Program-made: the position numbers and the translations under genes
Shown here: positions 53,149-58,367 of the stretch, piece by piece
Numbering within the stretch: position 1 is the stretch's first letter
Layout of the letters: the number at the start of each line of letters is the position of its first letter
Source of the DNA: Escherichia phage phi92
Sequence record: NC_023693.1
Direction: 5' to 3' (one strand)
Length of the DNA: 64,000 bases
The notes under the pieces: model-generated
Told to the model about the DNA's origin: nothing
The model's database searches: none
What the model saw: the letters and a program-made list of their open reading frames with translations, nothing else

Positions 53149-54309
53149 TTAGTAAGAACGAGCACCAAACACATACTCTGTGTAGTTTTTACGTTCTTTG
53201 TTTTTAATAACAACTTCAATGTTGTTGCCTTTATCATCGGTGAACACAAAGTGATAACCGTCACCACCCATTGTACGGATGTGTTTTTCATCATACGTCA
53301 GCAAGATACGGTCTACACCCCAGTAGTAGTCACCTTCTTCATCTTTGTCTTCTACTGTAACGACCCCTTCCATTTCAGGAAGATGTTCTTCTCCTAGCTT
53401 ATGGTCTACAGCTACAACATAACGATTACCGCTAAACAAACCCTGTGCTGTCATACCGTCAATATCGGTATCTGCCGAAACATCTCCTGTACGATCTACA
53501 CCGTTGACTTTCAGAAGTTTAACTTCTTTTGCAGCATAGCGGTGTTCAGTAATACTGATACCCATTAATGCAAGTGCATCAGAGAATTTGTCATTAGGGT
53601 AACGGTTAAGTTCTTCTACTAATGACTGAACAATATCAAAGTTCAAGTCCACGGAAAGATTATAAAGCGTTTCAAAATCTGGTAAAAAGGCTTTGTTCTC
53701 CAGATTTTTAGCCAGATAGTCATCCATAGTAGCTTTAGGTAGTTTCTTATAGCTAAAGCTGTAGAAAATACGGCTAGGACGATTACGCAAAAATTCTGAT
53801 ACATAACCATCGTTTTTAGTCAATACAAACAGCTTGTCGTAGCCACCTACACCATCCAGCAGGGTAAGCAAGCCATCCTGTGCATCTTTTTCAGCATACA
53901 GTTTATCAAATTCATCGATCATAATCATCACAGGTTGTGTGATTTTAGACATAAAATTGATAAAGCCTTCGCCATTAAAAGCACTACCGATAGGAATAGT
54001 AGGAATACCCATTTCACGAAGAGCAGAAGACAGCATTTTAGCTTGCAAAGTTTTACCGCTACCCTTCGTACCCTCAAGGAGAACACCTGTGTTTTTACCT
54101 TTGCGGCTAAGGAACGTCTTGATAATACGTTCTGATTTATCATCAGTATCACCGTATGTTACTGAAGGGACTTCCATATCGTTTTTAGGATACAGGAAGA
54201 ACTCACCACTTTGAGTAACACCTACACCAAAAGTTCCTGCTGGAATTTCTTCAATATCTGTACCAGACTTCTGACGCAGGAAGATTTGATTGCCGAATAC
54301 TGTAAACAT
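53149..54309 (-). CDS. AAA+ ATPase
   Basis: Walker A GTKGSGKT and Walker B VMIMIDEFD. Confidence 0.55.
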   Translation of the reverse strand: MFTVFGNQIFLRQKSGTDIEEIPAGTFGVGVTQSGEFFLYPKNDMEVPSVTYGDTDDKSERIIKTFLSRKGKNTGVLLEGTKGSGKTLQAKMLSSALREMGIPTIPIGSAFNGEGFINFMSKITQPVMIMIDEFDKLYAEKDAQDGLLTLLDGVGGYDKLFVLTKNDGYVSEFLRNRPSRIFYSFSYKKLPKATMDDYLAKNLENKAFLPDFETLYNLSVDLNFDIVQSLVEELNRYPNDKFSDALALMGISITEHRYAAKEVKLLKVNGVDRTGDVSADTDIDGMTAQGLFSGNRYVVAVDHKLGEEHLPEMEGVVTVEDKDEEGDYYWGVDRILLTYDEKHIRTMGGDGYHFVFTDDKGNNIEVVIKNKERKNYTEYVFGARSY

Positions 54310-54329
54310 AGTTTTCTCCTCTATTTAAT

Positions 54330-54800
54330 TTAGTCAGATTCCCAAATGTTGTCTTTCTTAATCCACATTCGTTGATTATCTGAACCTCTATAACGTTTCG
54401 TTGTTGGTTGATTCATATCATACTTACCATCTATCACTATGTCAACCAGTTTTTTAATTTTTTCTGGAATTTCCTCAAAAAGATATCCTGTATATAAGAC
54501 AATATCTTTTTTGTTTCCAAAACAATCTCTTACCTTCTCAAGAACATACTCTACAGTGTCAATGTTCTCTTTGTCAAGAGGTTCACCACCTAAAACTGTT
54601 AATCCTTTAATGAAAGGTCGAGATAAATCTTTCAAGATAAGATCTAATGTTTCAGTAGTGAACTCTTGTCCGTAGTTATACGACCAGGCTTTCTGGTTAA
54701 AGCAGCCACGGCAACCGTGGCTACAACCGCTCACCCACAAAGAGCATCTTACACCGTCACCGTTGAGCATGTCAACAGGTTCATATCCGGCGTAATTCAA
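54330..54800 (-). CDS. nrdG: anaerobic ribonucleoside-triphosphate reductase activating protein (radical SAM)
   Basis: Cys cluster CSHGCRGC (CxxxCxxC), 156 aa, immediately downstream of nrdD with ATGA overlap. Confidence 0.7.
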   Translation of the reverse strand: MNYAGYEPVDMLNGDGVRCSLWVSGCSHGCRGCFNQKAWSYNYGQEFTTETLDLILKDLSRPFIKGLTVLGGEPLDKENIDTVEYVLEKVRDCFGNKKDIVLYTGYLFEEIPEKIKKLVDIVIDGKYDMNQPTTKRYRGSDNQRMWIKKDNIWESD

Positions 54801-55738
54801 AAATGTTTCTCCCTTTCTAGTACCTCTTGCATTTTACCTTTATTATAAGGGCGAGAGTTAGGGGCAGAAAGGTATCCTGACACTCTTCTGATCACAGATA
54901 TGGATTCTTCTTCATGATTACCGCAACTTGGACACTCGAAGCCTTTAGCCGTTGCTTTAAATTCACCATGAAAACCACATTTGAAACACTGATCTACAGG
55001 TTGGTTCACGCCAAAATAAGGAATTTTATTGTAGGCATAATCTACAAGAGTTTCCAGTGCTTGCAAGTTATTTTTAAGGTTTGGTGTTTCTACATAACCT
55101 ATGTTCCCACCATTACTAATTTGTGCAAAACCTTCCTCATAATCCCACTTTTGGAACGGGGTAGTGTGCATCCATACAGGTTGATGGAAAGAGTTTGTCA
55201 AGTAGTCACGATCAATAGAACCAGGATAGCGATCATTTAACGCTTTGGCAAATTTATAGCACAAGGATTCTGCTGGTGTTCCATACAAACTAAAAGCTAA
55301 ACCAGAACGTTCTTTAAATGTGCCACAGATATCCTTCATATATTGAAGGATGTTTTTACCCATTGCTTTTGGATTGGTGTTACCTGGGTATAAAATCTCC
55401 ATAGCTTCTGCTAAACCTACATAACCGATACTAATAGAGGCATAACCACCTTCGAATAGTTTACCAATCTCTTCATTAGCTTCTAATCGAGCTAAAGCCC
55501 CTTCCATAAACAATGTAGGGTTTTGAGATGCTTTGGTATGTCTAATACGGTTAACACGTAGCATATGTGCCTTATACGCCATCTCCATATGTTGTTCCAA
55601 CAGTTCAGTAAATAAGATGCCCTTTTCACGGGACTCTGCTGCAATGATAGGTAAGTTTAAAGAAACTACGCCTAAGTTGAAACGACCATCATATTTTTCA
55701 CCTTGCTCTGTTGCATAGTATGACAAGAAACTTCTACA
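54797..55738 (-). CDS. nrdD: anaerobic ribonucleoside-triphosphate reductase, exon 2
   Basis: Begins CRSFLS... in continuity with exon 1; C-terminal zinc ribbon (CFKCG...CPSCG) and glycyl-radical region RRVSGYL. Confidence 0.7.
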   Translation of the reverse strand, partial: CRSFLSYYATEQGEKYDGRFNLGVVSLNLPIIAAESREKGILFTELLEQHMEMAYKAHMLRVNRIRHTKASQNPTLFMEGALARLEANEEIGKLFEGGYASISIGYVGLAEAMEILYPGNTNPKAMGKNILQYMKDICGTFKERSGLAFSLYGTPAESLCYKFAKALNDRYPGSIDRDYLTNSFHQPVWMHTTPFQKWDYEEGFAQISNGGNIGYVETPNLKNNLQALETLVDYAYNKIPYFGVNQPVDQCFKCGFHGEFKATAKGFECPSCGNHEEESISVIRRVSGYLSAPNSRPYNKGKMQEVLEREKHF

Positions 55739-56017
55739 CATTATGTTCAAAGTGGCTCGCAAGGCCACTCCCGCACCATTACGTGCTGCTGCATGTCACC
55801 ATGCAGATCAGACTATATCTTCATGCTTAAAGCATGTCTACCATTTGGGGTGTCATAGGCTTACACCCTACGCTGCTACATTCATCACAGCTAGTCGTTA
55901 GGCATTTCGTAACAGTACCCCCTTCTTCTGTGTTGGGAGTTCTGTTACGTTTAGCACGGGATTGTCTCGTTGAGAGTTCCCCCGTTTAGGCAGATTTTAC
56001 ATGAGCAGTTATAGTTT
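55739..56017 (-). ncRNA. group I self-splicing intron (ORF-less) interrupting nrdD
   Basis: 279 nt with no ORF separating two in-frame nrdD halves; exon 1 ends in U and the intron ends in G; paired elements present (ACGACTA/TAGTC P7-like, CTGCATG-GTGA-CATGCAG hairpin with GNRA loop, CATGC-TTTAA-GCATG hairpin); resembles my recollection of the T4 nrdD (sunY) intron core. Confidence 0.65.
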
Positions 56018-56875
56018 ACCCATGCTTGTGACGCGACCATCTGAAGATCCTGTAACTTCTTTGTTTAAAGGTACAGAGATAAAATCAGGATAAATGCGTT
56101 CAGCACAACACTCCATTGCCAGTTGCTTCAAATCATAGTTTGGATCGCCAGCTTTCATGTTAACACCATCTTCCAAGAAGAAGATAACTTTAGGAAACAC
56201 AGGAGTTACCCTATCTTTTCCTAATCCTTGTTTGTGCACCATTAGGTAGTTTTTAGTGATCATTCTACCAAAAGCAGAGGTATCCAAACCTAAACTAATT
56301 GTTATAAAAGGTGACTGACCATTTACACTCATTAGAGTGTTCACCTGGTAGATTAAAGTTTGCATTGCATCATAGACCTGTTTATCTACCATACGCATAG
56401 CAATATCATAATCGCCAACATCGGCATATATTTTATTAAAACTTGCTTTAACGTATTGACTAAGCCCAGTATCAACATGTGCACAAGTTTGTCCACCATA
56501 TTGGCTAGAAGCTACTGCTTGAATAATTTGAGTTAGGACAGTAGTCGCTACACCGATAGATTTTGGTTTTTCAATATGTGCATTACCAATACGGAAACCG
56601 TTCTCAAGCATATCTTGGTAATTTACCAGGCAACAATTAGTTAAAGGTGAGAGTAAATAATCTAAATCGTGAATGTGACCATACCCACTTTTATGCCATT
56701 CTGCCAGATCTTCCGGTAAAATATGGGTCATTGCCATGTGCTTGCTTAGGATACCTGCTAGTAAATCTCGGTGAGTATTAACAATCATTGCAGGTTTGTT
56801 TGCATTTTCACGAGTAAATTCTTCGGATGTTTGTTCGAGGAATCCGATTACATCCTCATATAGTTTTTGGGTCAT
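56018..56875 (-). CDS. nrdD: anaerobic ribonucleoside-triphosphate reductase, exon 1
   Basis: N-terminal NrdD-like sequence (RDLLAGILSKH, HIHDLDY, TNCCLV, IEKPKSIGVAT); the ORF track runs two codons (KL) into the intron before the stop. Confidence 0.7.
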
Positions 56876-56884
56876 TAATCCTCC

Positions 56885-56917
56885 GTGGAAAATAAAAGCC
56901 AGCTTAATGCTGGCTTT
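56885..56917 (-). terminator. intrinsic terminator upstream of nrdD
   Basis: AAAGCCAGC-ttaat-GCTGGCTTT followed on the - strand by TTATTTTCC. Confidence 0.55.
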
Positions 56918-56964
56918 AGGGTGGATCTTTATTTTAAATCTTTTTCGTAAGATTGTCCTTGATC

Positions 56965-57915
56965 TTAGTCAAGGTTTTTGGTAATACGTGTACAACCGTC
57001 AGAAGTCAAACCGTCAAATTGAGTTTCCCAAGTGCCATGAATATTTCGGAACAATGTTGTTACACCTTTTGGTTCATTAATAATGATTGCCATAACAAGT
57101 TTAGGATCGATAACAGACATAATCTTTTCCTCAATACCCTCTGTAATAACATTATTGCGCACAATATTAATTGCATCTTCTTGTACAGTAAGAACACTTA
57201 CGTTCTTAAGAGTATATACCTGCTGTGTAGTGTAAATGATACGAACATAACTTACAGAACGAGTAGGCACAGGTTTACGCGGTCGGCGAAAACGTGGTTT
57301 TGGTGAAGATTCAGTCTTACTTTCATTTTTTGAATAATACTCCTCAAACAGTTTAGTAAATGTTTTTACATCAACTACAAACCGATCTTTCCGATATGGA
57401 GAATTCTTATGTGCACCATTAATACCACTGTTTTCATCGAAGAAAGTAATGTTTTCTTCAGTTGAATACATTAGATAATGATCTGCATTTTTCCAATGTG
57501 GTTGTGGACAACGAGGATTACAAACGGAAAGCAGATAACTAATATCTTCTTCCGTGGCATCAGTATCCAGGAAACACGTATTATGCACAGTCAGTTGTAC
57601 TTTTTCAGCCATATCTTTTTCTTTATCCTCTTTAGCAAGATATTCAGTACGAATAATCTCCAGAAAATTTTCAGGTGTTACTTCCATAAATGTATATTCA
57701 GGATGAAGTTCCATATATTCAAATCCACAACCATCTAATTGCTGTAGAAAGTTAGGGTAGAAGAACAAATCATTAACACTGTGAATCAGATCATTGATTT
57801 CTGCTTCAGTTGTGTAACCAAAACTCTTGTGAATTGCTTCGTTAAGAATATGCAGGATACCCATCTCTTCTGCTGCTTTTTTAACTTCCAGTTTATTAGC
57901 GTAAAATGCAATCAT
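56965..57915 (-). CDS. hypothetical protein
   Basis: 316 aa ORF; no motif recognised. Confidence 0.45.
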   Translation of the reverse strand: MIAFYANKLEVKKAAEEMGILHILNEAIHKSFGYTTEAEINDLIHSVNDLFFYPNFLQQLDGCGFEYMELHPEYTFMEVTPENFLEIIRTEYLAKEDKEKDMAEKVQLTVHNTCFLDTDATEEDISYLLSVCNPRCPQPHWKNADHYLMYSTEENITFFDENSGINGAHKNSPYRKDRFVVDVKTFTKLFEEYYSKNESKTESSPKPRFRRPRKPVPTRSVSYVRIIYTTQQVYTLKNVSVLTVQEDAINIVRNNVITEGIEEKIMSVIDPKLVMAIIINEPKGVTTLFRNIHGTWETQFDGLTSDGCTRITKNLD

Positions 57916-57932
57916 TATGTTCTCCTTCTAAA

Positions 57933-58367
57933 TTAGTTTAAAATTTCTTTTGCAATGGTAGAAGCAAGTTTTCCATCATATTGGTTCGGATACTCTGCTT
58001 TAAGGTGTTTCATCATATCTGGCATTTTCTTGCCTGTCAAGGCAAATTCTTCGGCAATAGCTCGAAGATCATCTTCAGATAGCATTTCTGGTAAATATTT
58101 TTCCAGGGTGGTGATATCACGCATAGCTCGCTCACATTTGCTAATGGAGGCATTAACTTTCTTAAGCGAGTCTAGTTCCTCTTTAGCGTGTGCAATACCA
58201 ATCTTAACAATGTTAATCATAATATCATCTTCTGATTTATTCAGATTTGCCTTTTGAGTACGAGCAAGGTCAAACTCACCAATAATATTAGTTAACAAAG
58301 CAAAAGCACCCTTATCGGTTGTACGTGCTAAGATACGATCTGCTTTCATTTGTGTCACAATAGACAT
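57933..58367 (-). CDS. GatB/YqeY domain protein
   Basis: 144 aa helical protein whose size and sequence pattern (IVKIGIAHAKEEL...EEFALTGKKMPDMMKHLKAEYP) resemble the YqeY family. Confidence 0.4.
   Translation of the reverse strand: MSIVTQMKADRILARTTDKGAFALLTNIIGEFDLARTQKANLNKSEDDIMINIVKIGIAHAKEELDSLKKVNASISKCERAMRDITTLEKYLPEMLSEDDLRAIAEEFALTGKKMPDMMKHLKAEYPNQYDGKLASTIAKEILN

Follow-up and report, generated by a model that had tools for sequence, protein, structure and literature searches.

In Escherichia phage phi92 (NC_023693.1), two adjacent minus-strand ORFs correspond to the two halves of the anaerobic ribonucleotide reductase (RNR) NrdD, which raises the question of whether they are separate genes or a single gene interrupted by an intervening sequence. 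This locus was analyzed within a stretch of 64,000 nucleotides of the phage genome (hereinafter referred to as the window), and all features described below lie on the minus strand with coordinates of the window. The upstream ORF (56009-56875) ended in ...VTSMGKL*, the downstream ORF (54797-55768) was open from 55768, and no meaningful ORF was found between them on the minus strand. As detailed below, the 279-nt element that separates them is very probably a group I intron that lost its homing-endonuclease gene and interrupts nrdD.

The window belongs to a phAPEC8-like coliphage (Stephanstirmvirinae, Justusliebigvirus), and it shared 98-99% identity over 4 kb with many database phages. In the GenBank/RefSeq records inspected (arall, KKP_3264, PD06, SYGMH1, and JSE), nrdD was annotated as two separate CDSs, sometimes with a "hypothetical protein" between them; nrdD in these records ought to have a joined CDS and an intron feature. 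No published description of an intron at the nrdD cysteine site was found in the open-access literature, which was covered for T4 mobile elements, phage RNR surveys, rV5, Felix O1, Certrevirus, and Justusliebigvirus/Phapecoctavirus; an earlier description elsewhere is possible. Directly downstream of nrdD, the ORF list and the annotations of relatives placed the activase gene nrdG (54330..54800). This mechanically predicted ORF encodes 156 aa and starts at a TTG overlapping the nrdD stop codon, and a 441-nt version is annotated in some related records, which makes its true start uncertain. The 316-aa ORF directly upstream of nrdD (56965-57915) was annotated as "ribonucleotide reductase" or "hypothetical protein" depending on the related record. 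In addition, four unannotated records of ~146 kb labeled as "Campylobacter phage" A150, A145, C3, and A110a (MG065639, MG065645, MG065656, and MG065689) were 99-100% identical to window positions 54000-58000, a coliphage-type region. It looks as if their host labels are wrong or the preparations were contaminated.

The ends of the element were obtained from an intron-free allele. Phage VivaForever, a sister phage with 98-99% identity, harbors an uninterrupted nrdD that reads ...AGCATGGGT|TGCCGTAGCTTC..., with nothing inserted at the exact junction in the alignment, and it lacks exactly the 279 nt in question (55739..56017). At the nucleotide level, the intron-free junction was ATGGGT|TGCCGTAGC and the spliced-type junction was ATGGGT|TGTAGAAGT. 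Exon 1 (56018..56875) contained codons 1-286 and ended in ...Met-Gly (AGC AUG GGU at 56018), and exon 2 (54797..55738) contained codons 287-599 and the stop codon, beginning with UGU AGA AGU UUC. The insertion site therefore lies between the codons of Gly286 and Cys287. The element ended in G, and this terminal G (omega-G; 55739..55739) at the 3' splice site was identified from the sequence and the intron-free allele, the 3' end also aligning with that of the T4 intron. The first-pass annotation had placed splicing after the U at 56018 and after the G at 55739 to give VTSMG|CRSFLS, which matched the intron-free allele to the base.

Splicing the two ORFs in silico yielded a 599-aa protein that was 100% identical to VivaForever NrdD and contained one Pfam NRDD domain (residues 23-598, E = 3e-166) spanning the junction, which confirmed the earlier assignment of the two ORFs as NrdD halves. 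The coding sequences of the window and VivaForever (1800 nt) differed at 22 positions, all synonymous and none non-synonymous, indicating that purifying selection continues to act on the two exons as a single gene. The exons of KKP_3264 likewise showed eight synonymous and no non-synonymous differences from those of the window. This selection, seen in both comparisons, is the strongest indirect evidence that splicing occurs.

Residue equivalences were taken from an alignment to the solved structure of T4 NrdD (1H78). Cys287, whose UGU codon (55736-55738) is the first of exon 2, aligned with T4 Cys290, and the glycine of the glycyl-radical motif RVSGYL matched T4 position 580. We take T4 Cys290 to be the critical cysteine of the finger loop, and its equivalence to Cys287 places the intron directly 5' of the codon for the catalytic cysteine. 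Homing elements typically target conserved sites of this kind. The finger loop holds a critical conserved cysteine and a nearby methionine (PMC4493059).

The identity of the element was examined with Rfam covariance models, a check that the first-pass annotation had named for its proposed group I core. RF00028 (group I intron) matched positions 56063-55789 at 70.6 bits (E = 6.6e-16) against a gathering threshold of 50, and no other Rfam family reached its threshold anywhere in the 64-kb window. This match was offset from the true intron, since P1 was misplaced within exon 1 and the model, which ends at P9, missed the last 50 nt; the Rfam coordinates were thus rejected as intron ends in favor of those given by the intron-free allele. 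Two additional helices, P7.1 and P7.2, lie between P7 and P3' and assign the intron to subgroup IA (phage-type). The finer class is presumably IA2, that of the T4 introns.

At the 5' splice site, the end of exon 1 (CAUGGGU; 56018..56024) forms P1 with the internal guide sequence GCUCAUG (56000..56006), with 7/7 positions paired and the U at 56018 in a U.G wobble. The exon base at position -7 covaried with the last guide base in JSE and in two of the viral contigs, L012 and L044, the combinations among relatives being C/G, G/C, and U/A. An in-frame UAA was located at intron nt 7-9 (56009..56011), where the exon-1 ORF ends at 56009. In-frame stop codons within intron nt 1-9 were found in 9 of the 12 tabulated homologs, and those of L044, L053, and L081 were located at nt 4, 19, and 31. 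In the T4-like contig L081 (L081:2656-3453), which has its intron at the same cysteine site, the 5' exon seems to end in AUGGGA, not in U, with the guide CCCCAUU.

A candidate P10 was also identified, in which CUAUA at intron nt 4-8 (56010..56014) pairs with UGUAG, the first 5 nt of exon 2 (55734-55738). The guide and exon strands were UCUAUA/UGUAGA in the Felix-O1-like contig L012 and UUGGCA/UGCCGA in Vibrio phage F97, and since F97 differs in both strands, P10 guide and exon covary. P10-type pairing was not found in JSE, L053, L099, L044, or L081. As a conserved pairing P10 was rejected, since only 6 of the 12 tabulated introns have it, including F97 with its different guide and exon; at 5 bp it stays a candidate.

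In the first half of the core, the 5' strand of P3 (UCUGCC; 55989..55994) pairs with GGUAGA (55837-55842) and forms a pseudoknot with P7. P4 (ACGGGG/UCCCGU) encloses P5 (UCUC/GAGA) at 55956..55985, and P6 (CGUAACAG/CUGUUACG, 8 bp; 55908..55949) encloses P6a; these helices were supported by the homolog alignment and the minimum free energy (MFE) fold. Compensatory changes in P6 included CAUAGC/GCUAUG in JSE, CAAAGUA/UACUUUG in F97, and CAGC/GCUG in T4. The P6a hairpin (ACUCCC-12 nt-GGGGGU; 55917..55940) was identical in phage arall. In Serratia phage KKP_3264 (L004:1600-1625), whose ORF-less intron is 99.6% identical, a G-to-A change in the 3' strand of P6 (CUAUUACG) creates a C.A mismatch.

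The 3' catalytic core (55811..55896) scored 122.8 bits with a covariance model built for this region (R1). It consists of the P7 5' strand GACUA (55892-55896), P7.1 (GCUGU/GCAGC; 55872-55891) and P7.2 (GGGUGU/ACACCC; 55848-55868), both with compensatory changes, the P3 3' strand GGUAGA (55837-55842), P8 (55822-55836), J8/7 AAGAUA (55816-55821), and the P7 3' strand UAGUC (55811-55815). The P9 hairpin (CUGCAUG-GUGA-CAUGCAG; 55789..55806) was recovered in both homolog alignments. Further, P9.1 (GCAC/GUGC) and P9.2 (GGAGUGGC.../...GCCACUUU, with the conserved loop motif GCGA) were found at 55749..55786 from the alignment and the MFE fold.

These helices were assigned by hand and then tested on homologs. 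Viral contigs were scanned for a shared P7-P7.1 motif, giving 120 loci, and model R1 for the 3' core (P7, P7.1, P7.2, P8, and P9) gave 149 matches, 125 of them distinct. Across the 125 distinct homologs, 97.6% of cells paired, compared with 66% after column shuffling and at most 43% when the partners were slid, and 24 of 26 pairs showed compensatory changes; this alignment was fitted to the model structure, which favors pairing, and the margin over the controls was large. A second, structure-blind alignment was therefore made with MAFFT from 12 full-length introns with ORFs removed, covering 65 pairs in 14 helices with P3 written as a pseudoknot. Here 93.9% of cells paired (75.8% shuffled, at most 42% slid), 48 of the 65 pairs had compensatory changes, and all cells of P3 and P4 were paired; five of the six P3 pairs had compensatory changes. 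P7 was invariant across homologs, so that covariation is uninformative for it. The MFE fold of the native 279 nt (-91.4 kcal/mol, z = -4.05) independently gave P3, P4, P5, P6, P6a, P7.1, P7.2, P8, P9, P9.1, and P9.2, the absence of P7 being explained by its pseudoknot. The R1 scores of the T4 intron (133 bits) and the window intron (123 bits) are those of seed sequences of the model. In all, the paired elements that the first-pass annotation had read as a group I core were borne out as P1 and P3 to P9.2 in alignments of 12 to 125 introns. Two viral contigs (L115:800-6200 and L090:900-5300) contained eight and seven matches to the 3'-core model, respectively, within a few kb, an unusually dense arrangement.

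Group I introns are spliced by two standard transesterifications. In the window intron, P1 would result from pairing between the guide GCUCAUG and the end of exon 1 (CAUGGGU), its U.G wobble lying at the splice site, and free guanosine bound in P7 would attack after U56018. The terminal G55739 would then occupy the guanosine site while the freed 3'-OH of exon 1 attacks after G55739, and the 5-bp P10 (CUAUA/UGUAG) may help to align exon 2. The Gly286 codon would thereby be joined to the Cys287 codon, restoring one 599-aa NrdD. On unspliced RNA, the early UAA is expected to halt ribosomes before they reach the guide sequence and the core.

The earlier reading of the 279-nt spacer as non-coding, with no homing-endonuclease ORF, held, and the closest relatives of the intron suggested how this state arose. 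Phages arall, phiWec187, SD2, and VEcB had the same intron at 98-99% identity with a 490-nt insert containing a 169-aa ORF in P6, whose product is an HNH_3 and I-HmuI NUMOD-like protein. Compared with arall, the window lacked 490 nt comprising nearly all of this HNH ORF, with a CUG microhomology at the deletion junction (55913..55915): arall reads ...GGGGGTACTG-GTATGAGA...GAGTTCTG-TTACG and the window ...GGGGGTACTGTTACG, or, in a longer reading, ...GAAGAAGGGGGTACTG-GTATGAGA...GAGTTCTG-TTACGAAATG and ...GAAGAAGGGGGTACTGTTACGAAATG, respectively. The ORF remnant in the window was its last eight codons (55894-55917), kept only because they double as the P6 3' strand, J6/7, and P7. The 3' strand of P6a corresponded to the Shine-Dalgarno sequence of the endonuclease ORF, which in arall is followed by AUG 7 nt later; judged from this correspondence, P6a of the window is what remains of the hairpin upstream of the endonuclease gene that was lost. 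Analogous hairpins of different sequence cover the Shine-Dalgarno in the introns of rV5-like phages and JSE. There is precedent in the T4 td and nrdB introns, where the ribosome-binding site of the endonuclease is hidden in a hairpin and the 3' end of the reading frame extends into the core (PMC2988022).

Endonuclease ORFs were also lost elsewhere. A second ORF-less form of 290 nt (PD06, ECGD1, AMO3598, and others) reads ...GAAGAAGGG-TTATGATTATGAGTTCTGTTACG and keeps the last ~17 nt of the ORF, which indicates a separate deletion. Felix-O1-like contigs showed a third deletion, in-frame and internal, leaving a 13-codon mini-ORF. Moreover, the rV5-like viral contigs L015, L053, and L103 had ORF-less introns at the same site, with lengths of 251, 253, and 263 nt among them and a simple hairpin as P6. 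The description of the window intron as unusually compact in the first-pass annotation was not upheld, since these same-site relatives of 251-263 nt show that 279 nt is not unusually small. A free-standing paralogous endonuclease that mobilizes the intron was considered and rejected, as tblastn with the endonucleases of four relatives revealed no paralog in the 64-kb window (best E = 0.25) but only the 8-codon C-terminal remnant.

The ORF-less state of the window intron is most probably a recent loss and not an original feature. The intron would formerly have been mobile, descending directly from a form whose P6 loop encoded the 169-aa homing endonuclease of the I-HmuI-like HNH type. A 490-nt deletion at the CUG microhomology would have removed the endonuclease while sparing the hairpin over its ribosome-binding site, now P6a. 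Without its endonuclease the intron cannot home alone; its persistence is presumably due to splicing that is efficient enough to do no harm, and possibly also to its splitting of the endonuclease target site.

The opposite order of events, in which the 279-nt state came first and the arall/VEcB lineage later gained the endonuclease gene by insertion, concerns only the history of the intron. A single clean indel of 490 nt separates the two forms, so that one event suffices either way, and ORF-less introns do occur at the cysteine site. However, JSE, Vibrio F97, and rV5-like phages carry homologous HNH ORFs (~50% amino acid identity) at this same place in P6, which indicates that the ORF-bearing state is old. 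P6a is exactly the Shine-Dalgarno hairpin of the ORF and has no counterpart in the compact P6 of L015, L053, L103, or T4, and the sister 290-nt form with its ORF 3' codons proves deletion in its own lineage. For the 279-nt form, the direction follows by parsimony from the leftover hairpin, the ORF-bearing sister at 99% identity, and the compact hairpins that make up P6 in truly ORF-less relatives, and not from a retained ORF fragment. An ancestral 279-nt form is thus possible, but it is less parsimonious than deletion and we consider it improbable.

Two further explanations bear on whether nrdD is spliced at all. The two CDSs annotated in GenBank records would be compatible with a truly split gene, in which the NrdD fragments are translated separately and assemble into an active enzyme; the last three intron bases form an in-frame AUG, an in-frame GUG is present at 55768, and the NrdA gene of phage Aeh1, split by mobE, sets a precedent for an RNR that functions in pieces without being spliced (cited in PMC7344957 and PMC3653736). 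The spacer is nevertheless a complete, covariation-supported ribozyme with a correct P1, a U.G wobble, and a terminal G, and intron-free alleles lack precisely this stretch, to the base. In addition, direct reading of the sequence revealed no usefully placed Shine-Dalgarno before either candidate start, and the break would fall inside the finger-loop motif MG|C, which leaves separate translation highly improbable. It is equally hard to credit that the intron is a dead relic that stopped splicing after the endonuclease deletion, with nrdD a pseudogene. ORF deletions can harm intron folding, this deletion touches the P6 region, and the sister phage KKP_3264 has the C.A mismatch in P6; yet the window retains a P6 of 8 bp that stacks on a P6a of 6 bp, with all core helices intact, and the same ORF-less form was present in 11 database records. 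Loss of splicing is also contradicted by the exclusively synonymous exon differences, both from the intron-free allele (22 to 0) and from KKP_3264 (8 to 0).

With nrdD taken as a single gene with an endonuclease-deleted group I intron, the distribution of its alleles can be described. Among records with exons 98-100% identical to those of the window, ~30 were intron-free, 16-17 contained ORF-less introns (11 of 279-280 nt and 5-6 of 290 nt), and 4-5 contained ORF-bearing introns, counts that include RefSeq/GenBank duplicates. The intron-free phages include alia (MN850632) besides VivaForever. Intron state differed even among records of one species name, such as alia and VEcB. The same G|C site was also occupied in Phapecoctavirus, Vequintavirus, Krischvirus (JSE), Felix-O1-like, T4-like, and Vibrio phages. 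The nrdD of Vibrio phage F97 (L009:1-3200) is apparently interrupted more than once: besides the cysteine-site intron, an HNH endonuclease CDS lies ahead of a short initial piece of NrdD, and the CDS is broken again at 2788/2789.

The window intron was 90% identical to that of the rV5-like phage SYGMH1, whereas the exons were 71-73% identical, and it was 98% identical to the intron of Phapecoctavirus, with exons at ~80%. An intron far better conserved than its host gene points to lateral transfer. Four Phapecoctavirus records (MN850571, MN850598, OZ035728, and OZ035771) carried an ORF-bearing intron of 98% identity next to an exon 2 of ~80% identity. These identities mark a clear instance of an intron passing from one genus to another. 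Further, of the 22 synonymous differences that separate the window from the intron-free allele, four lie within the initial 9 nt of exon 2 (TGT AGA AGT in the window and TGC CGT AGC in the intron-free allele), and the probability of at least four differences in 9 of 1800 positions was ~5e-6 by a binomial estimate. Exon 2 started with TGTAGA in the window, rV5-like phages, JSE, Felix-O1-like phages, the T4-like contig L081, L044, and L099, but not in Vibrio F97. This patch looks like a co-conversion tract that would also suit the candidate P10. One phage genus thus holds intron-free, endonuclease-bearing, and two independent endonuclease-deleted forms of an intron that has also moved between phage subfamilies, and the Justusliebigvirus alleles provide a compact natural illustration of the proposed cycle of homing elements: invasion, endonuclease decay, and loss.

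Among the closest known systems are the ORF-bearing alleles in Justusliebigvirus (arall, VEcB, SD2, and phiWec187), Phapecoctavirus (nepoznato and nieznany), and Vequintavirus (SYGMH1 and JEP1), which share the insertion site, the 3' exon start TGTAGAAGTTTC, and a ribozyme of 90-99% identity. They carry the 169-aa I-HmuI-like HNH endonuclease in P6, whereas the window retains only its 5' hairpin and last eight codons. The introns of the rV5-like contigs L015, L053, and L103 have the same site and guide and are 83-93% identical, L053 being the closest (93%); their P6 is a short hairpin without any trace of an ORF, for instance CGGU-GUAA-ACCG.

The likeness to the T4 nrdD (sunY) intron that had been noted earlier held for the ribozyme but not for the insertion site. 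Both introns reside in the same host gene and have homologous ribozyme cores, nt 12-230 of the window intron showing 155/220 identities in blastn (E = 1e-26); over the full ORF-deleted alignment the identity was 73%, and introns at the same site as that of the window range from 58 to 93%. The guide GCUCAUG is identical in the two, as noted for P1 above, and they share the P7.1/P7.2/P9.1/P9.2 architecture, an early in-frame stop, and the 3' tail ...GCGA...UGAACA..UG, with 3' ends of ...GAACAUAAUG in the window and ...GAACACAUUG in T4. The T4 intron is located within codon 180 after the 5' exon UAUGAGU, whereas the window intron lies between the equivalents of T4 G289 and C290; the T4 site is ~110 codons upstream and leaves the PMG-CRSFL motif uninterrupted. 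That the two represent the same insertion was therefore rejected on the location of the T4 splice sites. T4 sunY is 1033 nt long and has the I-TevII (GIY-YIG) ORF after P9, whereas the window lineage has an HNH ORF in P6, absent from the window copy.

It is conceivable, although rather unlikely, that the T4 sunY and window introns are one ribozyme that moved between two nrdD sites ~110 codons apart, each copy then gaining a different endonuclease. The 5' exon ends UAUGAGU in T4 and CAUGGGU in the window are described as differing in one base while still pairing with the guide, and identical guides with still-pairing exon ends are expected from site selection by RNA pairing (reverse splicing). 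If such a move occurred, the two introns would document, in nature, the ectopic transposition of a phage group I intron, and together with the intron-free, ORF-bearing, and ORF-less alleles coexisting within single Justusliebigvirus species, this would offer a tractable test system for the homing cycle.

Similarity to the T4 td-type introns at the DNA level was confined to the P8-P9 segment (nt 172-230). The T4 td and nrdB introns, with I-TevI and I-TevIII, belong to the same general class of phage group I introns in nucleotide-metabolism genes. The window intron is a routine member of this well-known class, and the understanding of how group I introns work is unchanged by it. The nrdA gene of Aeromonas phage Aeh1, split by mobE, is likewise a phage RNR gene annotated as two ORFs; there, however, a free-standing endonuclease without a ribozyme separates halves that are translated separately, whereas the spacer in the window is a complete ribozyme.
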